Below are positions 1 to 18,823 of a DNA stretch of 64,000 nt, piece after piece (within the stretch, counting starts at the first letter, position 1; every line of letters begins with the position of its first letter). The DNA comes from an uncultured Acidobacteriota bacterium (GTDB lineage Bacteria; Acidobacteriota; UBA6911): assembly GCA_963827655.1 (NCBI GenBank), contig CAWHCF010000004.1:1-64000 (forward strand), read 5' to 3'. The notes beneath the pieces are model-generated. The model saw nothing but the letters and a program-made list of their open reading frames with translations. It ran no database searches and was not told the origin of the DNA. The translations under genes were made by a program, and so were the position numbers.

Positions 1-409
1 TGGTTCCTTTCGTCAACAACACGCGCGTACTCGTCCTCGACTGATTTAGCCGATACATTCTTTTAGACCAATAACCAATAGGAAATTTGTTTCAGCGGGC
101 CGATTAGAAGATAGAGCGGGGTGGGTCGGATTTCAACCGAGAATTCGACGGGTGACATGGGGATGCAGGGAAACGAGGGGCGTTGGGTGCGGTTGCTGGA
201 TAGATTACATGAGCGCGCCGGAGGAAAGTTGGTGAAGCGCAACGAGCCGTGATCAGGTTTATGCTTGTGGGAATGGCATAGGCATCCACCTCTTTGCGGA
301 ATTCGGGACTGTTGACGTAACAGAAATCGAATTGTCGGTCCTGGTAGCGGGAGAGGATACGAAGAAGCTTGTCCGATTGATTTCTTAGCGCCGCCGGCGG
401 TGAACTTCA

Positions 410-2404
410 CTACCGACTCCTGGGTGGCGCGCCCCCGTTGAACCTCATCGAGGCGCCTGGTTCGAATAACGCGAAGACGTACAGGGTGCCCCCAGACCGG
501 TAGCTCTTCATCCACGGTGCCCCTGCCCCGGTATATCCTCCCACCGCCCCTCCCATGCCGGCGGGAATTGCGATGTACTGCTTGCCGTCTAACCGATAGG
601 TGATCGGCGCGGACCGGATACCGGATCCCGTTTGGTAGGACCAGAGAATCTGGCCATTTTCCGCGTCGTAGGCGGCGAAGTTGCCTTCGGCATCGCCGGT
701 GAAGATCAGCCCGCCGCCAGTGGCCAGCATGCCGCCACCCATGGGGGTGCGCGTTTTGACCTCCCAGACGACCTCGCCGGTATTCGGTTGGATGGCCATG
801 ACCTTGCCATAGGCTTCATTCGGCAGATAGCGAAAGCCGCTCGGCCCGGCGGGCAACTTCTGGCTCCGCGCTTTGACGCCGTAATTGTAGAACTTGGCGC
901 AGTTCTCGATTACCGGCAAGTACACCAGGCGTGTAATCGGGCTATAGGACATCGGCATCCATTCTTTGCCCCCCGCTGCCCCCGGACACACCGTGACGCC
1001 CTCGTACGTCGGGATGGCCGCAGGATCGATGATCGGCCTTCCGTTGGAGTCGAAACCCTTTGTCCACGTAACCCGCACGAACGGCTTGGCGTAAAGGAAC
1101 TTTCCGTTGGTCCGGTCCAGCGCGTAGAAATGACCGTTGCGGTCGGCATGAACCAATGCTTTCACGCGCCGCCCCTGCCACTCGATGTCGATGAGCACCA
1201 GCTCGTTGACGCCGTCCCAGTCCCAGACGTCATGCGGCGTATACTGATAGTGCCACTTGAGGCTGCCCGTGTCGGCGTCGAGCGCGACGACCGAATCCGA
1301 GTACAGGTTGTCCCCCTTGCGGGCATCGGTATCGTAATCGGGATAGGGATTGCCGGTGCCCCAGTAGATCAGATCCAGCTCCGGGTCGTACGATCCGCCC
1401 ATCCAGGTCGCCGCGCCCCCGGTCTCGTAGGATTTACCGCTCCAGGTCTCCGCCCCTTTCTCCCCCTCCCCGGGGATGGTATAGAAGCGCCAGAGCCGTT
1501 TTCCCGTCTCTGCGTGGTAGGCGTCGATGAAACCACGGCTAGGCGAATCTCCGCCGGCGATGCCGACGACGACCTTATCGCGGACAATAAGCGGAGGTTG
1601 CTTGGCGTTCTGGTTCTCCTCTACCTTGCCTATCTCGATGTCCCAGCGGACCCGTCCGGTCTGCGCATCAAGGGCCACGAGGTGGGCGTCCAGGGTAGTC
1701 ATGTACACTGTGCCGTTAGCGATCGACACGCCCCGATTCGCCGGCCCGCAGCAATAGTTCAGCTTCTGGGGAAGCCGCCGCTTATGACGCCACAACTCGG
1801 CGCCGGTCCGCGCGTCGATGGCGAACACGTGATTCCACGCTGCAGTCAGGTACATCACGCCGTCGACAAACAGAGGCGTCGCCTCCAGGCCATCCAGGAC
1901 CCCGGTCTGGAAGCTCCACACCGGCACCAGGTTCTTGACGTTGTCCTTGTTGACCTGGGCAAGCGAGCTGAAGCTATGGCTCGCGTAGTTGCCGCCCCAC
2001 ATGAGCCAGTTGTCCGGGTCCCGAACCGAATTCAGCAGGCGTTCCCCGCTCACGTTGAGCTTCGGTGCCTTTATGCTGGTAACCGGCTGCAGGGCCTGGT
2101 TTCCGAGCCACCGCAAGTGTTGCACGACCGCCTGCCGGGCGTCCTGATCGAGCCTGTCGGCGAACGCGGGCATGGCCGCGCCCCGGACACCCTCTCGTAT
2201 GATCCGGTCCAGCTCCGCGTCCGTTATGCTCGTCTGCCAGCCGGGATTCGCAAGATCCGGAGCGGATCCCCCGTCGCCGAGAGCCCCATGGCATACCGCG
2301 CAGTGCTCGGTGAACAACGTCTGGCCGCGTTCCTGCTGCGGCTGCGCCGCAGCCGCGGCCACGAACGCAAAGAAGGGGATGAGAGTTACCGTACGAAGAC
2401 CCAT
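410..2404 (-). CDS. PQQ-dependent dehydrogenase (methanol/ethanol family) with N-terminal cytochrome c domain
   Basis: Signal peptide MGLRTVTLIPFFAFVAAAAA; CAVCH heme motif; vicinal CCGPANRG; WMGGSYDPELDLIYWGTGNP; HDVWDWDGVNE; repeated PQQ propeller W-motifs. Start moved to ATG 2404. Confidence 0.9.
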   Translation of the reverse strand: MGLRTVTLIPFFAFVAAAAAQPQQERGQTLFTEHCAVCHGALGDGGSAPDLANPGWQTSITDAELDRIIREGVRGAAMPAFADRLDQDARQAVVQHLRWLGNQALQPVTSIKAPKLNVSGERLLNSVRDPDNWLMWGGNYASHSFSSLAQVNKDNVKNLVPVWSFQTGVLDGLEATPLFVDGVMYLTAAWNHVFAIDARTGAELWRHKRRLPQKLNYCCGPANRGVSIANGTVYMTTLDAHLVALDAQTGRVRWDIEIGKVEENQNAKQPPLIVRDKVVVGIAGGDSPSRGFIDAYHAETGKRLWRFYTIPGEGEKGAETWSGKSYETGGAATWMGGSYDPELDLIYWGTGNPYPDYDTDARKGDNLYSDSVVALDADTGSLKWHYQYTPHDVWDWDGVNELVLIDIEWQGRRVKALVHADRNGHFYALDRTNGKFLYAKPFVRVTWTKGFDSNGRPIIDPAAIPTYEGVTVCPGAAGGKEWMPMSYSPITRLVYLPVIENCAKFYNYGVKARSQKLPAGPSGFRYLPNEAYGKVMAIQPNTGEVVWEVKTRTPMGGGMLATGGGLIFTGDAEGNFAAYDAENGQILWSYQTGSGIRSAPITYRLDGKQYIAIPAGMGGAVGGYTGAGAPWMKSYRSGGTLYVFALFEPGASMRFNGGAPPRSR

Positions 2405-2950
2405 AGGCGCGCCGTGAATGTCACCGCCGAGATTGATCCTTGACGATACTGAAGAAGCCTTTCCGGGGCAAGAACTCTCGGCGAAAACGACGTGACCTCG
2501 CCCGTCTGTGACTGGTTTCAAAACGTCTTTTGACACGCTGGACTTTCGAGTGGCCGCCCTTCCGGGAAAGAACGCTGTCGTGGACAGTCAATCTCAGACC
2601 TCCATTTGTACCAGGACATATGAAACAGCTCGTGCTCGCAAATCAGAGCCTTTGGTCCCGGGACGTGTCGTATTGGTAAGTGATGGCCTGGATGAGTCCG
2701 ATGAAACTCTCCTTGGAGCCGGGTCTGAGCGACAGTGATCGGACAAGGCGAGCGCCAGAGCGGAGCCAGCGTTATTCGGGCTTTTACGGTCGTGACCCGG
2801 TTGGTGATGAGCTGGCGCCGGGAAGATCGCGGTTGAGCAATCGGCCTGGTAAGAGAGAGAAACCGACCTGTCCTGACCGCCTCACGTTGAGACATTGTTC
2901 CAGCGCGGCTTTTGATCACATGATCAACGGTCTAGCCGGTCCGGGATGCT

Positions 2951-3817
2951 CTAGTCTCCGACCTCCAGGACATAGATTTGCCATGCGATAGGAGGGGTGG
3001 TAACCATCGATTCTACTTTGTTTTGTACCACATCCAGGATCTCTCTCACCTCCTCATCAGGCACACCGGCAAATAAGCTACTTCCCTTCGCCATAACAGG
3101 TATGCGTAAGAAATCGATGTGATCCTTGGGGGTACAATGAACCGCTATGCGCTCTCTTCTAGTTAACTTCAGATTGTAATCGTCTAAAGACTCTAATACG
3201 AAATTCGTTTTCGGCACGAGATCAGATTGTGAATCGCGGGCGCTACGGTCGTACCATTCTGGGCTTGCGTAGCCTCTCAGAGCTTTCTCCTTTAATATCG
3301 TCCCGAACACCGTGTTTTCCTCATAAAGCGCGCGTATCTCGCTGAATCTGAACCGAGGGTGCAGTCCCATGAGGCATTTTCCTGAGCGTTTGAGACTTCG
3401 ATGAATCCTCGATAAAACTTGTGCCTTGTCGAACATCCAGAACGCCGCATTGCACAAGATCCGATCCACTTTCGTCTTTGCAACCTTGCTCAGGTTCTCA
3501 GCTTTCTCGCAATGGAATTCTACGTTTGCCGAGGTTATGCGTCTCTGGGCGCAGGCGAGCATTTGAGGTGAAAAGTCAATCGCTATGATTTTGATAGCTT
3601 TCCCATAGGGTTGCCTGAGAATAGCTTCAGTGACCGATCCAGTTCCACAAGCCAGATCGACCACAACCATGCCTGGTTCGATTCCAGCCAGCTGCAGCAT
3701 CTTTTCTGCTGTGTATCGGTAGAAAGTATTTCGAGAAGCAAAGGCGGCGTATGCCTCGGCGCTCAGGTCCCAGTCTTGCTGCTCGCTTAAATTACGACCG
3801 ATGGGTCGTTTACTCAT
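2951..3817 (-). CDS. Class I SAM-dependent methyltransferase (putative RiPP tailoring enzyme)
   Basis: Motif I VVDLACGTG, IAIDFSPQML, DRILCNAAFW; last gene of the MNIO operon, same AT-rich composition. Confidence 0.85.
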   Translation of the reverse strand: MSKRPIGRNLSEQQDWDLSAEAYAAFASRNTFYRYTAEKMLQLAGIEPGMVVVDLACGTGSVTEAILRQPYGKAIKIIAIDFSPQMLACAQRRITSANVEFHCEKAENLSKVAKTKVDRILCNAAFWMFDKAQVLSRIHRSLKRSGKCLMGLHPRFRFSEIRALYEENTVFGTILKEKALRGYASPEWYDRSARDSQSDLVPKTNFVLESLDDYNLKLTRRERIAVHCTPKDHIDFLRIPVMAKGSSLFAGVPDEEVREILDVVQNKVESMVTTPPIAWQIYVLEVGD

Positions 3818-3984
3818 CTTGATTTCCGTCCCTTAGGAAATGATCGTCCTACTGTGCCAGAGTAGGACGATCATTTACCATTATGTTCAAGGTCTCGAGA
3901 GCTGCCTCTGCAACGTGGATGAAGTCTTAGATGCCGATGCAGCTTGTACCCGAACTTTGCAAGATTGTTCTGGAACTGCTAGCT

Positions 3985-4149
3985 TCAGGCGCAGCCGCAG
4001 CCGCAGCCGCAAGCACAGGCAGAGCCGCAAGAACAAACTTTGCCACAAGAGCAAACGCAGCTGCATAATGGAACCGACAAGGATGCTTGGGCAGCTTTAG
4101 GCTCAAACGGCTCCAATTTGAACAAATCCGTTTGCTTGCTATCAGGCAT
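3985..4149 (-). CDS. Cys-rich RiPP precursor peptide, 54 aa (MPDSKQTDLFKLEPFEPKAAQASLSVPLCSCVCSCGKVCSCGSACACGCGCGCA)
   Basis: Strong SD GAAAGGAGGTGA just upstream of ATG 4149; Cys-free leader followed by an 11-Cys CxC-repeat core; lies between the MNIO partner and the methyltransferase. Confidence 0.85.
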   Translation of the reverse strand: MPDSKQTDLFKLEPFEPKAAQASLSVPLCSCVCSCGKVCSCGSACACGCGCGCA

Positions 4150-4289
4150 AAGTATCACCTCCTTTCTTTCCGGTAGGCCAGAACCACAAACAATCGCCTT
4201 TTCATGAGAACACAACGGATCACACTCAGAGGTCATTTCTGACTAACCACGCTCATAATAATCTGATCACTAATAATCAGTTGGTCTAG

Positions 4290-5183
4290 CTACGCCTGTT
4301 CCTCGTTTTCGCCGATAAAGTTTACTGCTCCCCGGACATACAGTTGCTCGAGCGTCGCCAGGCAGTCAGCCCTTGCCGCGGCTTCGGTGATCCCCAGTTG
4401 AGAAGCTATAGATGAGATAACACCATCGAGGGTATGCTTTCCATCGCAGAGCTCAATCAGGTGTTTTAAAGGCAGATTGATAATGCTGGTATGAACGCCT
4501 GGCGCATGCGGTATCTTGAAGAAGAGAACCCAGGTTGGTTTCACCTCTAATGGTGGAATAGCTTGTTGCTCTTCAACCAGGGGGATTAACTCAGCCATGT
4601 TGTAACTGAATGATTGCAGACGCGCATGCTTACCTAACAAAGGTGTGGAGCTTCTTTGACACTCGTTGGTAAATGTCGATTTCGTCCGGTCTGCCTTCGT
4701 GAACCCTATGGCGTACTGACTTACCTCCGGATCAGTCAGCATCGAGAACTTGAGCACCTCGAATTCCAGGACATCCGTAAAACAGGGCACGTCTATTTCT
4801 TTTGTGGCGATCAGCTGACGAAGGTATTCAGAGACTCTGTGAAATTCGCCACGCACCCAGTCGCCCCCAATCTCATCGGTGCCCCTGACATTTTCTAAAC
4901 CATACCGATTGAGGACGACATGGAACTTCTCAGCCGGAAGCTGTTTGGCCAGAACGAGAAATGAGAGGGGCAGCCACTTCTTTATGAGCGCCAGTCTCTT
5001 ACTCAGCAATGAGCTGGCATATTCGCGAACTGCTTGCAGATCGACCGATTTGATGTCTTCTGACTCCTTTGCTGTCAAAGCAGACAATTCGAGAGCCTTG
5101 TCTGGGTCGCTGGAGAAAGTGTGACGGAATTCATGATCGACGCATAGCTTGGCGATTACAGTTTGCATGGCAATCATTGACAT
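4290..5183 (-). CDS. MNIO partner protein (HvfC/BufC/TglI-like) with C-terminal PqqD/RRE-like winged helix
   Basis: Directly downstream of DUF692; AGGAGG SD before ATG 5183; N-terminal KLCVDHEFRHTFSSDPDKAL helix; FTDVLEFE; C-terminal LIELCDGKHTLDGVI...LEQLYVRGAV. Confidence 0.75.
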   Translation of the reverse strand: MSMIAMQTVIAKLCVDHEFRHTFSSDPDKALELSALTAKESEDIKSVDLQAVREYASSLLSKRLALIKKWLPLSFLVLAKQLPAEKFHVVLNRYGLENVRGTDEIGGDWVRGEFHRVSEYLRQLIATKEIDVPCFTDVLEFEVLKFSMLTDPEVSQYAIGFTKADRTKSTFTNECQRSSTPLLGKHARLQSFSYNMAELIPLVEEQQAIPPLEVKPTWVLFFKIPHAPGVHTSIINLPLKHLIELCDGKHTLDGVISSIASQLGITEAAARADCLATLEQLYVRGAVNFIGENEEQA

Positions 5184-5271
5184 GGACCATTCCTCCTGAA
5201 AACGACGACGATCGCTGGCCACAGCAAAGCAAAACTATTCCTCAGACGTACAGCAGGCGACGAACGGCCAT

Positions 5272-6108
5272 TTACCCGCGGCCGTGATACCGTCTGAATA
5301 TCTCTCGCGCCGTGGCCAGGTCGCCAATCAGCTCTTGAAAGGAGCTGGGGAAATTGTCGTCTCTTTCTAACAAAACCCCCTTGACTGGGGCATGGCTGAC
5401 GACAAACTCCAGCAGGCGGAAAACCTCTGGATGAACTGGATGGCTGTGAGAATCAATCCACTTCGTGTGATGCCGATGCCCGCCAGCGATGTGTAACTGC
5501 ACGACGCGATCCAGCGGGATTGACTTTAAAAAGTGATATGGGTCATATCCGTGGTTGATAGAATTAATGTATACATTGCAGAGATCGAGCAGCATCCCGA
5601 TGTCCGCTTGCTCCAGGACGCGAGTAATGAAGGCCGGCTCTGACAGTTCACTTCCGGGAAATTGAAAGTAGTAGGTGATGTTCTCCAGCAGGAAAGGCCT
5701 CGGGACTTTCTCTTGTATCCGCTTTATCTTGCGGACTACGATCTCTACGGTTTCCTCCGAAAACTGCAGCGGTGTTAGCTGTCCCAGGTTGTACCCCTCA
5801 ACCCTGGTGAAACATAGGTGGTCTGTAAACCACGGGGCGTCCAGTCTTTTAACCAGGGCAGAAAGGCTTTCCAGATACGCGGCCTCAATAGGTCTATCTG
5901 TTCCTATGGAAAGGTCTATACCATGAGGCACGATCGGAAAAGTCGTCGCGAGAGTCGACAGTTGATCTAACTTGTCGGGGGTTACGTTAATATAATGTTC
6001 GGCGATGACTTCGCACCAATCAATATGCTCCCGATTGAGCATGATCTCTTTGGCAATCTCCCGTCGCCAGCCAATGCCGACGCCGAGTGTTGGTATGTCT
6101 GAATACAT
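5272..6108 (-). CDS. DUF692 family multinuclear non-heme iron oxidative enzyme (MNIO; MbnB/TglH/ChrH-like)
   Basis: GVGIGWR, EVIAEHY, HGIDLSIG, WFTDHLCF, LLENI, LLDLCNVYINS, QLHIAGG, IDSHS and LLERD motifs; GGAGG SD. Confidence 0.95.
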   Translation of the reverse strand: MYSDIPTLGVGIGWRREIAKEIMLNREHIDWCEVIAEHYINVTPDKLDQLSTLATTFPIVPHGIDLSIGTDRPIEAAYLESLSALVKRLDAPWFTDHLCFTRVEGYNLGQLTPLQFSEETVEIVVRKIKRIQEKVPRPFLLENITYYFQFPGSELSEPAFITRVLEQADIGMLLDLCNVYINSINHGYDPYHFLKSIPLDRVVQLHIAGGHRHHTKWIDSHSHPVHPEVFRLLEFVVSHAPVKGVLLERDDNFPSSFQELIGDLATAREIFRRYHGRG

Positions 6109-6158
6109 AAGACCCCTCCGGGTGCGAGGCTAAGACATCGTAACTGTGGGAGTTACTT

Positions 6159-8246
6159 TCATACTGGGTCGCGCCTCGTCAGTGTAATGATGCGTTTCGA
6201 GGTAAGGTCCCGAACGAGTTCTGTGATCCGCTCTGTTAGTTCGCTTTCGCTTGGTTCTATGGCGTGGTGGTTGTGGTAAAAGTGCGCTAGCTTTCGGCTG
6301 ATCACCCGGACCGTGTGGGTTCCATCGCAAAGATCAAGGAAATACTTCGTCGCCTGGTTGATTGTGAACTCCAAGTTGATAAAATTCCGTTCTCGCTTGA
6401 ACAAGAGGAAGGTAGGGGTCTGTGGAAGGTCACGTGGTATGTCATGTTGCTGCAAGCGAGTAGCTAAGGTCTGTAAGTCGTAGTTAAATGTCTGGACATG
6501 AACCCCTTTGGATTTGAGAGGTCTAAGGTCCGATAGATCAGCGATAGTATTGTGCTTGCTGATACGCGGTGCCGCGGCAGCGACGGACGCTACGGATCCA
6601 GGCGCCCAGGCGGGCGGGCTAACAAGTTCGGCGTCGCGATCGAGTAGCATCAAGTTATGGGCTTTCTCATACCTGAACGCGTCAATGAAATACTCGTATC
6701 CGCTGCCAAGGTCGCCCAGCATGGGCTCCAGAAACTCGCAAAGCCCCAAAGCGTCTTTGAACTGGCCAGCTGCCGGGGCAGTGCGCTGTCGGCAGTATTC
6801 ATTTACTAGCTGATCCCATTGGCCGTTTAACAAAGCGCTGGTCCATGGCAAGCGCGCTTTCAGCTTCTCTTTTCTGACAGACTCTAGAGGAGCCCCGCCA
6901 TCGGTTGTAGTCGATAGTCGTGTCTGCCGCTTGTCGATCATCTTGATCCACTCCTTCTCGAGGGCATCAAGATATGTTGCGGTTGCCTTGTCGCGGGCGG
7001 CATGGGCATCTTCATCGCCGCTGTATAATTCATGCCCCTGGAGTCCGATGAGCTTTGCTTTGTCTGGGTCGCGAATTACGACGGTTAATTGTCTGGCCAG
7101 GTCCAGGTGTTGTTTAGGATCGTCCACGATAAGCACATTCTGCCCATCGATGAACCTGTCTTTAATTCTGTGCTGCTTATTTGAGATTTCTCTGGAAACG
7201 ATCAGGGGGGTGCCGCAAGCTAAAATCTCACTGGGAATTGTGGGGCTATGAAAACTGATTGGGAACTCTCGCTCGAGGAAACAGACGGCAGTGCACGCAC
7301 GAATGAACCCAGGAACTTTCCAGTGCGGCATAAAGGGAAAGATCCACGTTCTATCCTGTAAATCGAGTTCCTCAATAGCTCGTTTGAAGCTTGTGAGAGC
7401 TCTTCCCTGAGTCAAGGCTAGAAGGTTGAAATCTAATCCTCTTTGCTTTAATAGCCTTAAAGCGTTCAGGAGGTCGAAGGACCCTTTCACTTCACCTACC
7501 TTCCCATAAATACCAATCGAAGGTTTGGACAAATCGATGGGATTTGTGTTGATTAGAGCGGTTTGCACGTGCTTGCTTTGCAAGGTTGCTAACCTTTTTA
7601 GAAATCCATTAAGATCTAAGGGCTTTGCCTGAGGACTAAAAATGTCTGGAACCTGGGGGGTTCTACCTGGCCATATATTCTCTTCTTTTACGCCCATAGC
7701 CAGGAAGGGCTCGGTAAAGGCAGATCCCGTCCATACGGAATCAGCGGCTCTCAGTATCTCGCGATAGGCGGTTGTGAGATCACGCTGCTTCATTAAGCGA
7801 CCTAAATCGCTGCCCGCATGCTTTAGCATGTAGGGGACTCCAGTCCATTGCGAGGCCAGATAGGCGGCCATGCCGTAGGGTTGAAGGTAATAGGCAAAAA
7901 TCACTTCGCAACCGTGTCGCCGGATCACCTCGGTCGCTATGGAAGACAGCTTGGTCACAAAGGGATTGGATAAGGGAATGTGCGTCATGGCGTCGGTAAA
8001 CGGCTGTGTGTTACGGACCCTGACGAAGCCCCCGGAATCCGCGAACTGTGGCTCATACCAATCCTGGTCGTCCTCATCCATGTAAATTCGGTATTCCGGT
8101 TCAACCTCGACGGCATTAGTCACTATAAAAATCTGATGACCTCGTTGCGCCAACTCGCGTGCCAGCCAGTAAGAACGCATGCTCACTCCACCTTCGATAG
8201 GTGGATACTTAACAATGAAACACGCTCTGATCATAAGTCTCTCCAT
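6159..8246 (-). CDS. GT4-type (GT-B) glycosyltransferase fused to a C-terminal MNIO-partner/RRE-like domain
   Basis: N-terminal YPPIEGGVS...ELAQRGHQI, HAGSD, GKVGEVKG, EILACGTPLIVS; last ~240 aa resemble the partner gene 4290-5183; alternative start at ATG 8234 with a GGAG SD. Confidence 0.85.
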   Translation of the reverse strand: MERLMIRACFIVKYPPIEGGVSMRSYWLARELAQRGHQIFIVTNAVEVEPEYRIYMDEDDQDWYEPQFADSGGFVRVRNTQPFTDAMTHIPLSNPFVTKLSSIATEVIRRHGCEVIFAYYLQPYGMAAYLASQWTGVPYMLKHAGSDLGRLMKQRDLTTAYREILRAADSVWTGSAFTEPFLAMGVKEENIWPGRTPQVPDIFSPQAKPLDLNGFLKRLATLQSKHVQTALINTNPIDLSKPSIGIYGKVGEVKGSFDLLNALRLLKQRGLDFNLLALTQGRALTSFKRAIEELDLQDRTWIFPFMPHWKVPGFIRACTAVCFLEREFPISFHSPTIPSEILACGTPLIVSREISNKQHRIKDRFIDGQNVLIVDDPKQHLDLARQLTVVIRDPDKAKLIGLQGHELYSGDEDAHAARDKATATYLDALEKEWIKMIDKRQTRLSTTTDGGAPLESVRKEKLKARLPWTSALLNGQWDQLVNEYCRQRTAPAAGQFKDALGLCEFLEPMLGDLGSGYEYFIDAFRYEKAHNLMLLDRDAELVSPPAWAPGSVASVAAAAPRISKHNTIADLSDLRPLKSKGVHVQTFNYDLQTLATRLQQHDIPRDLPQTPTFLLFKRERNFINLEFTINQATKYFLDLCDGTHTVRVISRKLAHFYHNHHAIEPSESELTERITELVRDLTSKRIITLTRRDPV

Positions 8247-9465
8247 TCATCGTTGTGAGGCGGCAAGCCGGCCTGCGCAGCCTCACATTTTAATGCGATG
8301 ATCAGCAAGCTCATGTGCCAAGGTAGCTGACGGAGCCTGAATATTACTGCCGGTCAAAAAGCTTCCCAGGAGCGAGAATCAAGCTTCAGGCCAGGCGATT
8401 ACCACACCCGGCGGCCCGCTTATCTATTGAGTGTCTTCGAATTGGGTGAATTAAAGGGAAACGGGACAAAAGGAATGAAGAGCTGCAAGCATCATCCCCA
8501 GAACCACGAAAGAAACCGTGCGGTGTGATGAAACGACGCAGAGAGTGAGCAATCATAAGTTCCCCCACTTTGATTGGCAAATCCTCCATCCATCCGTTTC
8601 TGCTGGTGGGTGGCTGCGGTTTCTACGTATGTTTAGTTAAAGTCAGAGGAAAAACGTTTCACTCTCTGGAACATTTATTAATCTGGCAATGATTCTCAGG
8701 CGTCAGCGAAACAGGAATCAACCGGTGGCTACAGGGCGAGATGACGGCGTGGCGGTCCGCGGCGCCCCCCACGCAGTGCCAGTGGAAACCGCATCCGCTT
8801 CCGCCCCGATCTGATTCAGTTTTTGCGCAGGCTGTCGAATGGAAGCGACATGCAGGTGCAACGCTGGCGTAGACGCGCTCAAGTGACAGCAGCAGCGACC
8901 ACGTAGCTTTCCGAGCAGGAGGAGTGAGCTTGGCTCCGGCACTGACCGTCGCAGGTTCGTTCGAACTTGTATGGACGGTCGCCGCCGGCGAGACGGTCTG
9001 TCGCGGGCTTCCCGCACTAGGGATGATCGGCTTTTCGGGTGATCGTCGAATCGGTCTCGATGAGTTGTGTCGGCCAGGCAACGGCCACGGGTCCGTCACC
9101 GCAAAGAAGCCCAACCGGAATCCAAGAATCCATCAAGCGCGCCTGCCGGATAGCTTGGCTATCCAATAGGATAGGAGTAGGGTCTCGACACTAATCCGCC
9201 CAAGAGCAAAATCTATCGGCGAAACGGCGTTGACATAGGGGATAAATTGACCGTGCAAAGCTTCAGATGGCGGATCGAGTCACGCGCCCACCCGAATCAG
9301 ACTTATCTGGTTCTGAACGATCGCGCCTCTTATCGGCGCGTGAAATGAAGTGGGCAGCCAGGCGGCGCTTGCCGAAAGTGACGGCGAGCAACGCCCTGGA
9401 ATTCAGTTCGGTCGGCCTGCGGGCATCCATCGTTGATAGATCAATGAAACCATCGGCGGCGCGTC

Positions 9466-9999
9466 TTACTTCTTCCGGTTTTTCTCGATGTACGCGCGTG
9501 CGAATGCGACGAGGTGAGGCGCCTCTCGAAGACCGATTTTCTTCGCTTCCTCTTCGGCAGCTTCGAAGGTCCAGCCGTCACGAAGGACCCGTCGTATCAT
9601 CCAGAAGGCTCCCACGCGGATTGCCGCCGTGCAATGAATAAGCATCGGCCGGTTCGCAGGATCCTCGGTGATCTGCAGAAAGAGGTCGACCTGCTCGTCT
9701 TTCGGTTCACGATAGACAACGGGGATGTTGAAGTACTTCAACCCGAGTTCCTTTGCCTTCGCCTCTTCGTCCGCGGCCCGGTGTTCCGCAGGCGTGCGAA
9801 GATTGAGGATCGACTTCAACCCCTCCCCCTTCAGCTTCTCCAGGGCTTCCAGCTTCGGCTGCCCGCCGGTGCAGAATTGATCGTTGACCAGAGTGAAGTT
9901 TAAGATTGCCGGCTGCTCCTTTTGAACCTGAGCAAAGAGCGTAATGGATGGAGCCGCAAGAACTCCTGCGGCACACAGCACAGGAATGAGCCTTTTCAT
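9466..9999 (-). CDS. Secreted protein-tyrosine-phosphatase-like / DUF442 sulfur-transferase family protein
   Basis: Signal peptide; GGQP, ILNLR, LIHCTAAIRVG (CX5R loop); AGGAGG SD before ATG 9999. Confidence 0.8.
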   Translation of the reverse strand: MKRLIPVLCAAGVLAAPSITLFAQVQKEQPAILNFTLVNDQFCTGGQPKLEALEKLKGEGLKSILNLRTPAEHRAADEEAKAKELGLKYFNIPVVYREPKDEQVDLFLQITEDPANRPMLIHCTAAIRVGAFWMIRRVLRDGWTFEAAEEEAKKIGLREAPHLVAFARAYIEKNRKK

Positions 10000-10993
10000 C
10001 GCGTCCTCCTTAGGGCTCGCCGTTGCAAAAATAACTATCACATTCATGGCGCGAGAGCTCAGTGGTCAATCATGGACTGGTTAAACTTTCCCAGCACGAC
10101 TGGCAGGATCGCGCCCCTGCGCATGCAGCCCCAGGCCCGCTGGCTTTGTTGCTCGCACCTCACGAATAACGCACCGGGTACGCATCGTCGCTCGCGCCTC
10201 CCACCCTTCTTCTGTGAAACTACATCGCGCAGCCTCCGTTATACGGAGTCAAGAAATTCGTTCAGGGGGTTATGTCGACTCTGCCCTCTGCACAGCCGCC
10301 GGAAGTAAATCCGATCACGAACAATCATGAACACAATTGTAAGCTACAACGGTCGCACTCAACAGGGAGTTTTGTCCACCCTTCTGTCGCAAGAGGCGGG
10401 AATAGTCTCTCACCTCAGCAGAAAGGGTGGCGCGGGCGCACTTACTTTCTTTTTCACGATGGTACTGTTGAAGGTACGACGTTAACGAAGGCGATCTTGA
10501 TTGGATCTCGTGGTTTGGTCAGCTCGATGGTTTGCACCGGTGTTTCTTATGATCGGTGGTTACGGCGCGGCGACAGATTCAACCCGGCGGCTGTACATGT
10601 CGGTTTGGTATTTCTCTGGAACGTATTGTATTTTCACGCATAGCTGGGCGCTCGTTGTCCTGGAGCCAAGCATTACCGGTGAAGGTTTGTTGCGCGAAAC
10701 CGGTTATCGGCTGGACGCGGCCACAATTCGGGTTAATGTGTAGTGATTCTATCGCGCGTGACAGCAAACGAAATTCTGGAGCCGATCATTGCGTGGGACG
10801 GGGGTGGCTTTGAGGTAGTGCGAAAGCGAAGTTGGGGCGGTCGTGTCCGCACAGGCGTAGAACCGAAACCTTCACCCATCTCGCATGACGGTATAAGGGG
10901 CGGCGACTCGGTATCGACGTGGAAAAGCGCCGTCTCGGCAGGTTTTGCCCAATCTGATGCAGCGGCTCACGGGGCTACTAGAGGGGGAAAAAA

Positions 10994-12181
10994 ATGAAAA
11001 TCACCGATGTCACTGCCACCTGGCTGCGGTGTCCCATCCCGCAGATCAACCAGCACACGAGCGACTTCGGGCGTTTGCAGACTTTCGACATGACGCTCGT
11101 ACGCGTCGAGACCGACGAAGGCTTGACCGGCTGCGGCGAGGCCAAGGGGGGCGTCGGCAGCACGGCCATCTGTGGCCCCATCGTCTCCGTCGTAATGGAG
11201 GAGTTAAAGCCGCTGCTTCTGGGCGAGGACCCTCGCAACATTACCCGGCTGTGGGAGAAGATGTACAACGGCGTGCGCGCGCACTACGTATTCAAGCACG
11301 GGCGCAGCTTTCCCGAGCTGGGCCGGCGCGGCGCGCGGCTCTGCGGGATCAGCGGTGTCGATATGGCCTTGTGGGACTTGCTGGGCAAGAGCCTGAACGT
11401 GCCGCTCTACCAACTGCTCGGAGGCAAATGCCGTGAGAGCGTGGAGGCTTACGCTTCGGGGGGTTGGGCTGACGCCGCAGGCATCGGCGCGCAGTTGCGG
11501 CAGACGATCGCGCCGGGCAACTTCAAGGCGGTGAAGATGCGCGTCGGCGCCATGGATGAGACCGTCGAGAATTCGATCGACCGCGTGCGCGCCGCCCGCG
11601 AGGCGCTGGGCGACGAGATCAAGTTAATGGCTGACGCGCATGGTACCTGGAACGAGCGCGAGGCGAAACGCTTCTGCCGCGGCGTCGCCGACTGTCACCT
11701 GAGCTGGGTCGAAGAGCCGGTCAACGCCGACTCGGTTTGTGCCATGGGGGAGGTGCGCGCCGCGACCGACATCCCCATCGCCGCCGGCGAGAGCCTCTTC
11801 ACGCGCTTCGACTTCAAGCACCTGCTCGATGCGCGCGCCGTGGACATCCTGCAACCGGATCCGGCGATCGCCGGCGGCATCACCGAGGTCGTGCGTATTG
11901 CGGCACTGGCCTCGGCCCACCAACTCACCCTCGCGCCGCATCTATGGGGCTCAGCGCTGCTGTTTGCCACCGGGCTGCACCTCGCCGCCGCCCTGCCCAA
12001 CGTCGTCATCCTCGAATACTCGATGGGCTTTAACCCGATGCTGCGCGGCCTGAGTCCCGATGAATTTGTGATCCGCGATAGCCGGCTCGAAATCTGTGAC
12101 GAGCCCGGATTAGGTGTGACGATCAACGACGACTTCGTGCGCCAGTACGCCTACCAAACGAAGATCGAAGATAGGCTATAG
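10994..12181 (+). CDS. Mandelate racemase/muconate lactonizing enzyme family (enolase superfamily)
   Basis: SGVDMALWDLLGK, KMRVG, MADAH, WVEEP, AAGES, LQPD, APHLW. Confidence 0.92.
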   Translation: MKITDVTATWLRCPIPQINQHTSDFGRLQTFDMTLVRVETDEGLTGCGEAKGGVGSTAICGPIVSVVMEELKPLLLGEDPRNITRLWEKMYNGVRAHYVFKHGRSFPELGRRGARLCGISGVDMALWDLLGKSLNVPLYQLLGGKCRESVEAYASGGWADAAGIGAQLRQTIAPGNFKAVKMRVGAMDETVENSIDRVRAAREALGDEIKLMADAHGTWNEREAKRFCRGVADCHLSWVEEPVNADSVCAMGEVRAATDIPIAAGESLFTRFDFKHLLDARAVDILQPDPAIAGGITEVVRIAALASAHQLTLAPHLWGSALLFATGLHLAAALPNVVILEYSMGFNPMLRGLSPDEFVIRDSRLEICDEPGLGVTINDDFVRQYAYQTKIEDRL

Positions 12182-12511
12182 AGCACAACCCGCGAAACAA
12201 ACCAGCACCACCAGCGAGATGGAATGAGTTGGTGTCATCTCTCACATCACCGATTGGAGGCTTGCCGCCGGAATCACTGCCTGATCGGCGTCATTATCAA
12301 TTGAGAATCTTCGCTTTTTCGCCGTTAAAAAGCCTGCCCAGCAGTATCATGCGAGGTCCGTGTCCGTCTTCGTGTTCGAGAGGTCGGCACGAACGCAGAG
12401 CCAATGCCTGTATCCTGGTTTTAGCGCCCTGTGTGGACCTGGCGTATGAGGGGACTTCCACCGGCGTTGAAGATCATCAAAATCAAGGCGGCGCGCCGAT
12501 TTGCGTCGAGT

Positions 12512-12537
12512 GTTCAGAGCAAGCTACCGCACTCCAA
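12512..12537. repeat. 26-bp REP-like dispersed repeat, identical copy at 41286-41311
   Basis: GTTCAGAGCAAGCTACCGCACTCCAA occurs at both intergenic sites. Confidence 0.7.
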
Positions 12538-12578
12538 ATACGTCACCATGATGGCGTCGATCAGATTCAAGGGGAAAC

Positions 12579-13961
12579 GTGCGAAGCAGATCAAGAGCTA
12601 TTGCGGTTGTGATCCTTGTGGCGTGGTCTGGGAATTCCAGAGCCCTCGCTGTCGGTTCCGGTGAGAATACGGATTCCATAGCCCCGATCCTGCTTGCTCT
12701 GATCGCCATACTCGCGGTGGCCAAGCTCGGAGGCGAATTGTTTGAGCGCATCGGCCAGCCGGCCGTACTGGGTGAGCTGCTAGGCGGTGTAGCCCTGGGC
12801 AACCTGGCGTTGCTCAATCAGAGCTGGAATTTTTTCGCGCCTCTTCAACCTGCCGACGTGCAGGAGCCCTGGGCGATCGTTATTCGCAGCCTCGCTCATC
12901 TCGGGGTCATTATTCTGCTTTTCGAAGTCGGCTTGGAATCAACCGTGACCGACATGTTGAAAGTCGGCGCTTCTTCGTTTGTCGTTGCGGTCCTCGGCGT
13001 CATCGCGCCCTCCGTGCTCGGAATTGGAGTCAGCTGGGTGTTTATCAAGGAGTTACCGGAGCAGATTACGGCCCTGGCGGGACCAGGCTTCAGCCTCTGG
13101 TACGTGCACATTTTTGTCGGCGCCACTCTCAGCGCCACAAGTGTTGGAATCACGGCCCGGGTCCTCAAGGATCTGGGAAAGCTCCGGAACCAGGAATCCA
13201 AGATCATTTTGGGGGCCGCCGTCATCGACGACGTTCTGGGGCTGATTATTCTCGCCGTGGTATCAGCCACCGTGACGGCTTCGATATCGGGCCAGTCTCT
13301 GGCGCTGGGTTCGATATTACGTTTGATACTTACTGCAGTCGGTTTCCTCGGAGGAGCATTGGCGATCGGAGTGCTTTTCGTGCCTCGTGTCTTGAAGCAG
13401 CTCGCAAAGCTACGTACAACCGGAATCATGCTGATTTCATCCATTCTTTTCGCATTCGCTCTTTCTTACTTGTCGGCTCTCGCGGGACTGGCCCCGATCG
13501 TGGGCGCATTCGCCGCAGGATTGATCCTCGAAGAGGTTCACTTTCGCAGTTTCCGGGACCAAATCACCATCGAGCAGTTGATCCGCCCTGTCTCGACTCT
13601 CCTGGTGCCGATCTTTTTCGTGCAAATGGGTATTAGTGTCCGGCTGGAGACATTTCTCGATCCTTCAGTCATCGGCCTCGCCGCCGGCATCACCGTCGCC
13701 GCGATTGCAGGCAAACAGATCTGTGGTCTCGGAGTGCTTGAAAGGGGTCTCGATCGCCTAACGGTCGGTGTGGGCATGATTCCTCGCGGTGAAGTCGGCC
13801 TGATCTTTGCCGCGATGGGAAAAAGCTTGAACGTGATTGACGATGCCACGTTCTCGGCCCTCATCGTGATGGTAATGGGAACCACCCTGATTGCTCCAAT
13901 CTTGCTCAAGCAGACGCTCTTACGGTGGGAGCGGAAGTCGCGTCTCGCCTCGTCCCGATAG
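12579..13961 (+). CDS. Cation:proton antiporter (CPA2, NapA/KefB-like)
   Basis: GQPAVLGELLGG, ATSVGITARVL, AAVIDDVLGL, GMIPRGEVGLIFA; many TM helices. Confidence 0.92.
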   Translation: MRSRSRAIAVVILVAWSGNSRALAVGSGENTDSIAPILLALIAILAVAKLGGELFERIGQPAVLGELLGGVALGNLALLNQSWNFFAPLQPADVQEPWAIVIRSLAHLGVIILLFEVGLESTVTDMLKVGASSFVVAVLGVIAPSVLGIGVSWVFIKELPEQITALAGPGFSLWYVHIFVGATLSATSVGITARVLKDLGKLRNQESKIILGAAVIDDVLGLIILAVVSATVTASISGQSLALGSILRLILTAVGFLGGALAIGVLFVPRVLKQLAKLRTTGIMLISSILFAFALSYLSALAGLAPIVGAFAAGLILEEVHFRSFRDQITIEQLIRPVSTLLVPIFFVQMGISVRLETFLDPSVIGLAAGITVAAIAGKQICGLGVLERGLDRLTVGVGMIPRGEVGLIFAAMGKSLNVIDDATFSALIVMVMGTTLIAPILLKQTLLRWERKSRLASSR

Positions 13962-13971
13962 CGGCCCCCAA

Positions 13972-14015
13972 ACAAATACCGCTAAGACGCAGAGACACGA
14001 AGAAACAGCAAGAAT
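13972..14015 (+). repeat. ~44-bp intergenic repeat family (consensus ACAAATACCACNAAGACNCNAAGACACNAAGAAACACCAAGA), copy 1
   Basis: Related copies at ~16758-16800 (+), ~20686-20728 (-), ~37317-37360 (-) and ~37372-37408 (+); shorter relatives near 35864, 46412, 46527 and 57041. Confidence 0.7.
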
Positions 14016-14511
14016 CTTTGCCACTACTGCCTTTTCCTCAAAGAAATCCGGACTTGACGGGATCGACTGAGACGCGATCAGAAGATAGGCTGTAGGACAG
14101 TAGCCGTTACACCGCTACTGCGCTTCGCCTGGCGGCTACTGCGCCTCGTTTGGCGCGCCGGGCAATGTTTATCGCCCCGGGTTCTCGCAGGGTGCCCGTT
14201 TGGAGAAATTGGCTCGCTCGGAAACAGGCATTCGAGCGGGAAGGATCCTCCCAATGCGGCAAGACCGGGCGAGGCGCAGTAGCAGCAGGGCCTAGCAAAG
14301 ACGCATCAAGAACTTTCGGGAGACCTTACTACCCGGACGCTCAGGTTGAGCCTCGATACCAAAACCCCGGGCACCTCCGGAAGGGGATCGACGGCTCGGA
14401 CTGAGGTCAGCCTGCAGCACAGAGTGAGGAGGCTGGCGGCTGACCTCGTTTCCAGGGGACCGCGATTGGGAACACGCGGTCCCCGCCGATCCGGCTCACA
14501 ACCGGGGACAG

Positions 14512-14672
14512 CTCGAGGCCTTCAACTTTACCAACACGCCGCACCTGGCATCACCAAGCAACAATACCAACAACACCCTCACCCAGGTCGATGTCAACAA
14601 TCCGAACTCGGTCAGAATCCTGACGGCGGATGAGCCTCGGATCATCCAATTCGCCTTGAAGTACTTTTCTAG
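14512..14672 (+). pseudogene. C-terminal remnant of an Oar-type TonB-dependent receptor
   Basis: Translates LEAFNFTNTPHLASP...DEPRIIQFALKYF, the same terminal signature as the TBDR ending at 41005 (EFFNAWNHPQF...REIQFALKLIF); no upstream body. Confidence 0.7.
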
Positions 14673-14826
14673 GTTGGTGGCCGACGGATGACCTGACATT
14701 TCTTCCCAACCAGTTATAATGGGCGCGGGAGGGGCACCCGCCGCCAGAGCCAGCTTGACAAACTCTGCAGATCAAGACGTGGAGCCGTGTCAGGTTCCCA
14801 AGCCACGAGGCAAGCGGGGGCAAATC

Positions 14827-16746
14827 ATGCACACCCGTCGCCTGCCGTTCGGGCTACGAGCCTGTGGCCTGATCGTATTGGCGACGCAATGCATCGCTCT
14901 GTCTCAGGAGACATCCCCGGAACAGTCTTTGAAAAAGGCTCTGGCGCTGCAGACGGCCGGCGACATGGAAGGCGCCATCCGCGAGTATCAAGCCTTTCTG
15001 GCCCGCCATCCCGGCATCGGCGACGTCCGCGCCAATCTCGGTGTTGCCTATGCCTCCATCGGCAACTACGCGAAAGCCATCGACGAGCTCGAGCGCGCCC
15101 TGGCGTTGGGCAACGTCAGCAATTCTGCAGGCGTCCGGTTCAACCTCGGATCGGTTTACTTCAAGGCCGCTCAGTTCGCCAAGGCGGAAGCCGCGCTCAC
15201 GAGAGTCGTGAAGGAGCAGCCGAAAGACAGGGCGGCCGCGCTGATGCTGGCGTCTTGTTTCCTTCTGAGGGACGAGGTTCATAAGGTCATCGCGCTGCTC
15301 TCGCCCTTCGAGTCTGAACTTGGCAAAGATCCTCAGTTTGCTTATCTGCTCGGTACCGCACTGATCAAAGATCGTCAGATTGAAGCGGGTGAGCGCCATG
15401 CCGTAACTGTCATGAAACACGGAGACGCGGCCCTGGCGTGGGTCATGCGTGGAACCGGCCGTCTCGTGGCGGGGGACTATTTCCAGGCGGCGGAAGCATT
15501 CAAGAAAGCTCTCGAGCTCAATCCCAGACTCCCCTCGGTGAATGGCACCTACGGACGGGTACTACAGGAATTGGATCGGCCGGATGAGGCCGACAAGGCT
15601 TTCCGCCGGGAGATCGAGATCAATCCGGATGATTTCGAGGCCAATTTCTATCACGGCACCTATCTCCACAGCTTCGAGCAACGCTACGAGGAAGCGCTGT
15701 CATACCTGAACCGAGCCTTGCGCGCGAGGCCCGACCGCCACGACGTGCAGTTTCAGATTGCCGTCGTTCTCAGCCAGACGGAGCGTGTCGAGGAGGCTGT
15801 CAAAGTCCTCGAGAATGTTGTGGTGAAATCTCCCAATTCTCTGGAAGCTCATTCTACCCTCACTCGGCTATACGTCCGGCTGGGACGGCGTGAGGCAGCC
15901 GAGCGCCATCGTGCCATCGCCGAACGCTTGCGCAAGGATCAAGAGGGACAGAGATTCATCCAGCAGGGCCGCTTCTCCGAAGCCGTGGAAGTCTTCAACC
16001 AGCTGAAGCAGGCGGACAAGTCCGACCCGAGGCCATATTTTTTTGCCGGCATGGCCCTGTCTTTGATGAAAGACAGCAAAGCCGCTGCTGCGGAGCTGAG
16101 CCAGGCGGTACGCCTGGATCCCCGGAACCCAATGTATGTCATTCCGTACGCGGACGCTCTGGCGCGCTCCGGACAGGTTGCGCTCGCCTTGGAGGTCCTG
16201 GAGCCCGTGAAGCCCGAATCGCTAGTGGCGTTACCGCCGGAACTCCTCTTGACCCTCAGTGAAACGTACCACCGCGCTGGACGTCACGACGAGGCGCTGC
16301 ATGTCCTCGATGTGATGGCTCGAAAGGACCCTTATAGCGCGCGCATCAACGCACTTCGAGGCCAGATCTATCTGGTGAAGGAGGACTTCAAGCTGGCGCG
16401 GCAGTTCGCCGAGAAGAGCATCGAAAGACTGCCGAAAAACAACGGGCTCGCTTACTTCGTACGGGGAGGGGCCCAGTTCCGCCTCGGGGATAGAGCAGGC
16501 GCGCGGGAATCCTACCGCGAAGCCATCAACCAGGATCCCGACAATCCGTTGTACTTGTGGAAACTGGGAGCGCTGTATCTGGCAATGGGTGAGAGTGGGG
16601 AGGCCATCCGACACCTTGAGAGAGCCAAGAAAGGAGCGGACACGTTCCCGGAAATTTATGCGGACCTGGGCAAGGCTTACCAGAGCAACCAGGAGCCGGT
16701 CAAAGCAAAGGAGGCCTTTGACGCGTACGCCGCTGCCAAGAAATAG
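14827..16746 (+). CDS. Exported tetratricopeptide repeat protein
   Basis: Signal-like N-terminus; many TPRs (ANLGVAYASIGNYAKAIDELERALAL etc.). Confidence 0.88.
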   Translation: MHTRRLPFGLRACGLIVLATQCIALSQETSPEQSLKKALALQTAGDMEGAIREYQAFLARHPGIGDVRANLGVAYASIGNYAKAIDELERALALGNVSNSAGVRFNLGSVYFKAAQFAKAEAALTRVVKEQPKDRAAALMLASCFLLRDEVHKVIALLSPFESELGKDPQFAYLLGTALIKDRQIEAGERHAVTVMKHGDAALAWVMRGTGRLVAGDYFQAAEAFKKALELNPRLPSVNGTYGRVLQELDRPDEADKAFRREIEINPDDFEANFYHGTYLHSFEQRYEEALSYLNRALRARPDRHDVQFQIAVVLSQTERVEEAVKVLENVVVKSPNSLEAHSTLTRLYVRLGRREAAERHRAIAERLRKDQEGQRFIQQGRFSEAVEVFNQLKQADKSDPRPYFFAGMALSLMKDSKAAAAELSQAVRLDPRNPMYVIPYADALARSGQVALALEVLEPVKPESLVALPPELLLTLSETYHRAGRHDEALHVLDVMARKDPYSARINALRGQIYLVKEDFKLARQFAEKSIERLPKNNGLAYFVRGGAQFRLGDRAGARESYREAINQDPDNPLYLWKLGALYLAMGESGEAIRHLERAKKGADTFPEIYADLGKAYQSNQEPVKAKEAFDAYAAAKK

Positions 16747-16830
16747 GAAGTGCCCTTACAAATACCACAAAGACGCAAAGACACTAAGAAACACCAAGAG
16801 CATCCAACAATGCTTTCAGTGCTTTCCTCT

Positions 16831-18294: not shown

Positions 18295-18823
18295 AAGAGT
18301 GCCTGAACCTGAATGCAATGAGCAAACCGCCGAATAATCAGAGAAGACCAAGCCCCCACACGAAGAAAGCGCAGCTCAGGTCCTCTGCTCATCATATGCT
18401 TCCTGACATTGTCGAAGCCGGCGCTCCCGCTAAGTCGCGCCGTTTCTAAGTGCGGTCCGCGACTATGTAACATCGGGCCCTGGCACTGAGGGTGATTCGC
18501 GGTGCTGATTGCTTGACAAAGCCGAGTTGCTAGATGATTAATTTAGTGAACCAACTCGACAATTGGTACACCGACGGAAAGAGTACGGTCAAGGAATAAG
18601 TGAACACGATTGACTCTCGATCGCGACCGCCGCGTACTGGTATTAGACTGAACCTCCCAAGGAGTATTTCCCCGATGCTCAGCCGGAGGAACGCAGACCC
18701 AAAGCCGCGATCGGGCCCATCGAGCCTTACCGGTGGCGGGAACGAGTGGGTAAGGGGCGAGGCCCTGCCAGATTGATAAACCCAATTGCGGCTTTCACCG
18801 ACTGAGCCAGGTGGATCCTCCAT

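Follow-up and report, generated by a model that had tools for sequence, protein, structure and literature searches.

The window examined here comprises 64,000 nucleotides of contig CAWHCF010000004.1 (assembly GCA_963827655.1) from an uncultured Acidobacteriota bacterium. Its minus strand carries five head-to-tail genes, which encode a glycosyltransferase (GT), an oxidase of the MNIO (DUF692) family, the standalone partner of this oxidase, a Cys-rich precursor peptide and an S-adenosylmethionine (SAM) methyltransferase. Sequence comparison indicates that the C-terminal tail of the GT is an old paralogue of the partner. Because the partner's first ~55 residues are missing from the tail and its RiPP recognition element (RRE) is kept, the fused copy retains the peptide-binding end and loses the helices that likely dock the oxidase. 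The GT is quite probably a leader-guided glycosyltransferase of peptides that are ribosomally made and post-translationally modified (RiPPs), whose RRE would bind the precursor leader and which would glycosylate the Cys-rich core without docking on the oxidase. The original prediction had proposed a leader-dependent GT acting on this same precursor; the computations favor that proposal, since the RRE is kept and the leader is modelled in its alpha3/beta3 cleft. Two points go beyond the prediction: the truncation itself, and relatives whose GT carries a complete partner that appears to replace the separate partner gene.

The partner-derived tail of the glycosyltransferase

The GT gene (8246-6159, minus strand) encodes 695 amino acids when read from 8246; its probable start lies at 8234, a start common to close homologues at which GGAGAG lies upstream of the ATG. 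Residue numbers follow the listed proteins P0001 (GT) and P0002 (partner), the latter beginning one codon after the probable Met. The Pfam GT4 domains PF00534 and PF13579 score above cut-off and cover residues 19-398 of a GT-B catalytic domain (residues ~1-441; 6924..8246), which is delimited by its structure match and conserved residues. Beyond a disordered linker at 447-451, profiles and models place a helical subdomain (residues ~452-541; 6624..6893) that corresponds to partner residues ~56-166 without the partner's first helices, followed by a winged-helix domain of the RRE/PqqD type (residues ~568-690; 6177..6545). The partner, a TglI-like protein of 297 amino acids, is encoded directly after the MNIO (5183-4290, AGGAGG before 5183), on the same strand as all of these features.

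The GT and partner motifs quoted in the original prediction are all present, with both proteins on the minus strand, and the predicted relationship of GT residues ~455-695 to the partner is recovered by pairwise and by profile alignment. BLASTP aligns GT 576-654 with partner 180-259, that is, the C-terminal half only (28% identity, E 5e-7). In a shuffle test GT 441-695 scores z 11.9 against the partner (0 of 2000 shuffles as high), whereas GT 1-430 scores z -0.4. For GT 441-560 against partner 41-165 the pairwise score (z 0.5) is reached by 568 of the 2000 shuffles; the first two anchors of the predicted alignment are therefore not significant pairwise, although family profiles recover them in the predicted register. 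These profiles, built from 48 tails and 46 partners, align GT ~452-695 with partner 56-296 over 221 columns (99.8%, E 1.4e-28), compared with 0.3% for the control profile of the GT catalytic domain. The partner set behind this control, and behind the scan with a hidden Markov model (HMM) of the partner's N-terminal subdomain, included two GT-tail fragments (L011 and L073), which were excluded from the E 1.4e-28 alignment and from the locus, tree, signature and conservation counts.

The AlphaFold models of the GT (pLDDT 90.5, pTM 0.90) and of the partner (pLDDT 93.0) share, over this aligned region, 16 helices and strands in identical order, as assigned by DSSP and compared by eye along the profile alignment. 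A recent local duplication of the partner into the GT is ruled out by identity, since the window's tail is 19.8% identical to the neighboring partner and 35.1% identical to the tail at locus L001, and by the tree, in which it falls among other tails while tails that include a complete partner (type A, below) fall among free partners, with many weak nodes. A search for further long proteins bearing the partner module returned two matches and missed the known GT fusions.

The prediction that the GT carries a paralogous copy of the partner thus stands as to homology; it does not stand for the whole module. The profile match begins at position 37 of 275, and the N-subdomain HMM (partner residues 1-52) finds no match on the window's tail. 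The absent segment is the helical N-terminal subdomain of the partner (residues 1-~55, with a conserved Q6; 5016..5183, minus strand). The partner model matches TglI in Foldseek (8hi7, E 4.9e-6), and its residues 1-290 overlay residues 3-269 of 8hci_C (VIA Z 16.1, root-mean-square deviation [rmsd] 4.5, 256 aligned); the standalone partner has the whole TglI fold. In the portion of the TglHI report available, helices alpha1-3 and alpha7-8 of TglI hold two loops of TglH, the larger interface (~573 Å2) being that of alpha7-8; deletion of alpha1 or alpha3 abolishes binding of TglH, the MNIO, and the RRE domain lies outside the TglH interface and is required for precursor pull-down (PMC10880893). 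From the range of the overlay, the residues missing from the GT copy likely correspond to the oxidase-docking helices of TglI, and the TglI deletions suggest that the N-terminal subdomain of the partner likely docks the MNIO here. With these helices missing, the window's tail appears to lie outside the functional MNIO partners, whereas type-A tails appear to lie inside.

The partner has no match to PF09836 (DUF2063), for which weak matches occur in 11 of 46 family members, and ESM Atlas clusters at 0.87-0.92 are unnamed or of the DUF2063/NGO1945 type, which serves as a lead only. Its N-terminal subdomain (5016-5183) matches an NHLP/Os1348 model below cut-off (NF038399, 34.4 bits vs 40) and weakly overlays the helical bundles of SonA, LigA and Os1348 (Z about 5).

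The RRE domain and its predicted leader ligand

The PqqD fold expected of the tail is indicated both by profile (E 6.1e-7 against PqqD 5sxy) and by the PqqD-like order of elements in the model, where three strands (582-587, 612-617 and 625-629) are followed by three helices (631-639, 646-660 and 667-683; DSSP). An extra helix follows the first RRE strand in the GT tail as in the partner. Pfam PqqD (PF05402) matches 22 of 48 tails at an E of 0.1 or below (best 5e-8); the window's own tail is under the Pfam cut-off, and the sub-threshold PqqD matches at the two C-termini have E 2.7e-4 (partner) and 0.07 (GT). The tail also matches HvfC weakly (E 5e-4), and a few GT homologues are labelled "PqqD family peptide modification chaperone" by NCBI. 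In whole-chain fold searches the match lists were filled by GT-B structures, and the tail was judged by profile and DSSP.

The candidate ligand is the precursor peptide (4149-3985, minus strand; AAGGAGGTG precedes its ATG), which has 54 amino acids with 11 Cys within the last 26 residues. When the tail is modelled in complex with residues 1-32 of the precursor, the score is 0.75, compared with 0.01 for the best control; among solved complexes 116 of 157 attain the mark applied to such models, and among mismatched pairs 2 of 215 do. Runs share 58% or more of their contacts, and the partner pLDDT in these runs is 51-53. Leader residues 8-19 (4093..4128, minus strand), which include an F-x-L motif, contact beta3 (625-630), T633, L677 and L681 of the RRE, and they are predicted to add a strand to beta3 through a segment containing F10 and L12. 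The alpha3/beta3 cleft occupied in the model is the leader site of RREs as given in the available part of PMC12710340. Since RRE-leader complexes have already been solved, the model may pass through likeness rather than binding.

Small Cys-rich open reading frames (ORFs) flank most clusters of the family. Sixty-four were picked by eye as precursors (median Cys count 4), and 63 were used for motif and Ser/Thr counts after that of L092 was dropped. In 47 of the 63, the first Cys is preceded at a distance of 11-24 residues by an aromatic-x-aliphatic motif (shuffle mean 11, maximum 21); the motif was chosen after the data had been seen, and related precursors count separately. This motif is the precursor stretch docked in the complex model.

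Loci at which the oxidase is missing bear on what the tail serves. At L077, L022 and L026 the GT, its RRE tail and a Cys peptide occur together, and MNIO was not found in the genomes of L077, L022, L026 and L024 (four of five searched), all of them metagenome-assembled genomes (MAGs) whose completeness is not stated. The combination of GT, RRE tail and Cys peptide where no MNIO is detected favors a tail that serves the peptide and not the oxidase. A genus-wide search for more such clusters returned only the query and one distant GT (250 genomes scored, one not scored).

The surroundings of these loci vary. At L077 (6415-9929) a radical SAM/SPASM gene, a precursor with four terminal Cys-Gly units and the RRE-tailed GT adjoin a type I secretion pair. 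At L022 (7830-12141) and L026 (7986-12212), loci without MNIO, the tailed GT adjoins a protein of ~170-230 amino acids with no Pfam or NCBIfam match. The same protein stands beside a tail-less GT at L107, L122, L124, L125 and L133, again with no MNIO at the loci; it recurs in 12 loci and presumably resembles glycine-rich-domain/TIGR04222-like proteins. More distant tail-less GTs (L129, L135, L140 and L141) belong to radical SAM clusters. L129 also has an AsnB-like gene and a free gene of the PqqD-like type, L135 a small protein with a long Ala-Thr repeat and L140 His-Xaa-Ser genes. Given such neighbors, the whole GT family appears tied to peptide modification.

Two architectures and the competing readings

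The protein search scored 8000 candidates and gave 174 matches, 120 of which were listed; the partner-derived tail is present in 117 of these 120 listed homologues. From the genome search the best 80 of 213 matches were retained. They correspond to 79 loci, and the record titles of these cover what we take to be about ten phyla; L003, for instance, lies in Corallococcus exercitus SDU142 and L010 in Plesiocystis pacifica. An MNIO gene is present in 67 of the 79 loci, and in 47 of the 51 that have at least 5 kb on both sides.

Two architectures can be distinguished. In type A the GT is fused to a complete partner, and in type B, to which the window belongs, a trimmed tail occurs together with a separate partner gene. 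With the N-subdomain HMM, eight of nine type-A tails score 20-51 bits and none of the remaining 69 tails exceeds 4.3. The partner signature Q6/K61/R62 is conserved in 56, 50 and 57 of 60 free partners and in 9, 9 and 5 of the nine type-A tails; among 62 type-B tails R62 occurs in nine, and K61 is outside the three commonest residues. A separate partner gene is found at 56 of 58 type-B loci with MNIO (the remaining two show a weak or frame-broken partner) and at none of eight type-A loci with MNIO, five of which have full flanks, several loci being short; L027, which has two clusters, was left out of the latter count. In each of five type-A genomes searched, the one match to the full length of the partner falls within the reading frame of the GT, and weaker partial matches of 25-36 bits, one of them in a 297-residue frame, occur elsewhere. 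Type-A GTs occur at genome loci L029, L033, L034, L037, L038, L057, L064, L068 and L027 (10675-12804, minus strand), and the architecture is seen likewise at L110, L121, L134 and L139; the 63 metagenome loci contributed four type-A proteins beyond those of the genome loci. Cultured soil strains with a type-A GT include Ktedonosporobacter rubrisoli (L029) and Nonomuraea sp. (L057).

These architectures are consistent with the following history. At the outset a GT would have been joined to the entire partner. One lineage (type A) would use this fusion protein as the partner of its MNIO, GT and oxidase then making up a single complex. Most members, the window among them, are of type B; there a second partner gene would serve the MNIO, and the docking helices would have been lost from the fused copy.

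An alternative is that the tail mainly serves to dock the GT on the MNIO, either alone or in complex with its partner, the peptide being handed over and leader binding being secondary. The window's tail keeps its helical subdomain (35 bits), including R458 and E527 (R62 and E141 of the partner), and the helices kept are probably equivalent to alpha7-8, which form the larger TglI interface in the available part of PMC10880893. The tail of type-A loci, as the apparent sole partner, presumably binds MNIO. However, TglI without alpha1 or alpha3 fails to bind TglH, according to the same part of that report, and these helices appear to be missing from the tail; the helical half of many type-B tails is below HMM detection while the RRE half, above 20 bits in most, persists; and tails persist at loci where MNIO is not detected. 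Docking as the main role is therefore unlikely.

An equally improbable reading holds that the tail is a structural relic of the old GT-partner fusion, with a GT that modifies the peptide, perhaps after leader removal, and has no need of the RRE. The divergence of the tails (24% mean column identity, compared with 39% for whole proteins) and the existence of tail-less relatives would fit a relic. Conversely, the RRE half is kept in the 117 tailed homologues, its score stays above 20 bits in most tails, including those that have lost the helical half, and the leader complex model passes its controls.

Several observations weigh against leader-guided glycosylation without docking, the preferred explanation. 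The helices kept in the tail may allow residual contact with the MNIO. The leader motif is absent from the precursors of L022, L026 and L077, where no MNIO was found, in MAGs of unstated completeness. Tails resemble the partner of their own locus barely more than other partners (median rank 18.5 of 60). Nine of the ten GT domains of type A group in a single clade (support 0.99, together with L119, in a midpoint-rooted tree), so the count of zero in eight amounts to about one event; a Fisher test on the partner/type split (p 8e-9) was not used because type-A loci are kin. Finally, 15 of 131 GT domains are tail-less, and the catalytic domain can hence exist without an RRE.

Acceptor chemistry, cluster context and known systems

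The best fold match of the catalytic domain is BshA (6n1x; Z 32.3, rmsd 4.0, 369 aligned). GT4 donor sites are marked by a GG loop, two basic residues and an E-x7-E motif. In the family, G19-G20, K249, K254, E325, H333, E340, Y120 and the A-G-S-D stretch at 144-147 are each conserved in 129-131 of 131 members, which suggests a single acceptor chemistry across very different cores. The composition of some cores points to sulfur as this acceptor: 25 of 63 have neither Ser nor Thr between the first and last Cys, and those of L075 and L077, counted from two residues ahead of the first Cys through to the C-terminus, are devoid of Ser, Thr and Tyr. The identification of the acceptor as Cys sulfur, either free or MNIO-derived, is a guess that is offered tentatively. 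Speaking against it, 57 of 64 precursors also have Ser nearby, and to argue from the presence of Cys in every core is circular, Cys having been the criterion by which precursors were picked. The E-x7-E motif of GT4 has a changed spacing: E325 precedes E340 by 15 residues, owing to an insertion, and the conserved H333 lies between them. Neither LmbT (Z 19.6) nor SenB (Z 20.4), both S/Se-glycosyltransferases, matches the fold more closely than ordinary GT4s do; a special kinship to these enzymes in support of S-glycosylation was not found in the fold comparison. The GT has no match to PF00535 (GT2) and has a GT-B fold instead of that of the glycocin S-glycosyltransferases.

In the proposed pathway the MNIO and the standalone partner would oxidize Cys residues of the precursor, and the GT would bind the same leader through its own RRE and transfer a sugar from a housekeeping nucleoside diphosphate (NDP)-sugar, with retention, onto the Cys-rich core. 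The methyltransferase would add a further change before or after glycosylation. A more far-reaching proposal, which is possible rather than probable, is a new RiPP class that spans about ten phyla. Its leader-guided GT4, a retaining enzyme, would add sugars to Cys sulfur (free, or as the thiols of MNIO-made 5-thiooxazoles) and would have gained specificity by capturing the partner of the oxidase, type A forming a GT-MNIO complex and type B having a leader clamp.

A purine-rich ribosome-binding site precedes each of the five genes. The MNIO (PF05114, E 5e-88; 6108-5272, minus strand) has 278 amino acids, and its nearest models, BufB (237 bits, cut-off 310) and HvfB (223 bits, cut-off 360), are both below cut-off. 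The class I SAM methyltransferase (3817-2951, minus strand), identified by domain search, is the final gene and has a close homologue at L001, L076 and L080. The GC content is 0.49-0.53 over the cluster and about 0.60 on the left flank. The window's genome has one copy of the GT, and a search of 60 related genomes did not find it, a distribution that fits an acquired island and not an envelope gene. The predicted assignment of the GT to the pathway rather than to envelope synthesis is thus upheld, although the tail is not the strongest evidence for it; the 67 of 79 loci with MNIO, the 60 relatives and the GC content weigh more. A GT acting on a small-molecule or cell-envelope acceptor, or a GT-B fold serving other chemistry, is very improbable: the closest solved folds are small-molecule and envelope enzymes (BshA, MshA and PimA), the E-x7-E motif is altered and no NDP-sugar genes were recognized among the recurrent neighbor groups listed, but the RRE fusion, the MNIO in 67 of 79 loci, the 60 relatives in which the GT was not found, the GC content of the cluster and the presence of even tail-less relatives in peptide-modification clusters all stand against it.

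An assembly chimera at the junction of GT and tail is ruled out by the 117 of 120 listed homologues with the same architecture and by an independent contig (X18) spanning 6850-7000. Selenocysteine read-through of the TGA of the precursor is likewise ruled out, as three homologues stop at the identical Ala. Contigs from RNA libraries cover the precursor gene (three of four runs fully, the fourth partly) and other parts of the cluster; such contigs say nothing on transcription or its levels. Promoter and terminator scans gave chance-level results only. No protease or exporter gene adjoins the cluster within 1-20000 in the ORF list, and the region at 8250-9400, about 1.1 kb upstream of the GT, has no ORF recognizable as a gene. 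The genome encodes one more MNIO elsewhere (G000:C20:336046-337683), which is only distantly related (29% identity) and is accompanied, in two frames, by a weak match to the partner.

Neighborhoods of the relatives are varied. L008 has two GT paralogues (3855-5673 and 10114-11664), about a dozen tandem Cys-rich precursors of double-glycine type, and one MNIO with its partner. An AsnB-like amidotransferase, a carbamoyltransferase, a second GT4 and an M50/HExxH protease recur at L006, L021, L032, L113, L115 and other loci. The carbamoyltransferase has an RRE-like region as a tail in L021 and at the N-terminus in L032, and the protease has an RRE-like N-terminus. The 742-residue protein P0119 joins an asparagine-synthetase-like domain to a GT of this family without the partner tail.

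Among known systems, the partner resembles TglI of the TglHI 3-thiaglutamate pathway (8HCI/8HI7) in its helical N-terminal domain and C-terminal RRE, and is similar to the PME-type 2 MNIO partners, which have a helical domain and an RRE, as defined in the available text of an MNIO survey (PMC12452194). However, TglI is a free subunit, whereas the window adds a second, N-truncated copy fused to a GT4, and type-A relatives fuse the whole partner. The string "glycos" is absent from the text of that survey, a check that covered the text apart from the Pfam names of Fig. 5b and part of one supplementary table. Bufferins and captophorins (BufABC and HvfABC) likewise combine an MNIO with a DUF2063-RRE partner and make 5-thiooxazoles. 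The window shares with them its nearest MNIO models, a Cys-rich substrate and the weak tail match to HvfC; it differs in an MNIO below both cut-offs, a partner without DUF2063, the additional GT and methyltransferase, and a precursor with a short polar leader and no Sec signal apparent by eye.

RREs are also joined to catalytic domains in RiPP enzymes such as NisB, TruD/LynD and radical SAM maturases, where they deliver the precursor, and the sequence suggests that the GT works in this manner. RREs fused to GT2 (PF00535) are described as newly seen, on bioinformatic grounds, in the available part of PMC12710340; the fusion in the window instead joins a GT4 (PF00534/PF13579) to an RRE plus a partner-derived helical domain. 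In the accessible parts of two further papers, glycosylated RiPPs are rare and their transferases little characterized (PMC11912497), and the characterized transferases are mostly GT2, with one GT4 whose role is proposed (PMC11912497; PMC8068269). Ribosomal peptides are likewise glycosylated by the glycocin S-glycosyltransferases (GT2), AplG, IgtG (GT2) and, in cacaoidin, Cao24. In the descriptions seen, glycocin enzymes modify precursor Cys residues, the GT4 enzyme Cao24, from a RiPP cluster, has a proposed role, and no RRE or MNIO is described for any of these; the glycocin enzymes and IgtG are of another family or fold. The retaining GT4s BshA and MshA provide the best fold match and the best sequence matches of the N-domain, but they share only about 15% identity, use small-molecule acceptors and have no tail.

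No description of an MNIO cluster with a GT4-partner fusion was found in the literature searched, most subscription journals lying outside its coverage, and the available parts of PMC8776678, PMC7794033 and PMC13174530 do not describe the system of the window. The clusters likely represent a family of glycosylated peptides from bacteria that is widespread and has apparently gone undescribed. RRE-bearing GTs are otherwise known only as bioinformatic matches of another family, as given in the part of PMC12710340 available. The GT-RRE fusion is a marker for a broad set of uncharacterized MNIO clusters with very diverse Cys-rich cores, several of them in cultured strains. Types A and B amount to a natural deletion experiment that separates the partner's oxidase docking from leader binding, and the architectures show a tailoring enzyme gaining substrate specificity by capture of a neighbor's subunit. 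A natural leader-guided GT, if the reading is correct, would offer a portable means of glycosylating peptides in a site-directed manner.

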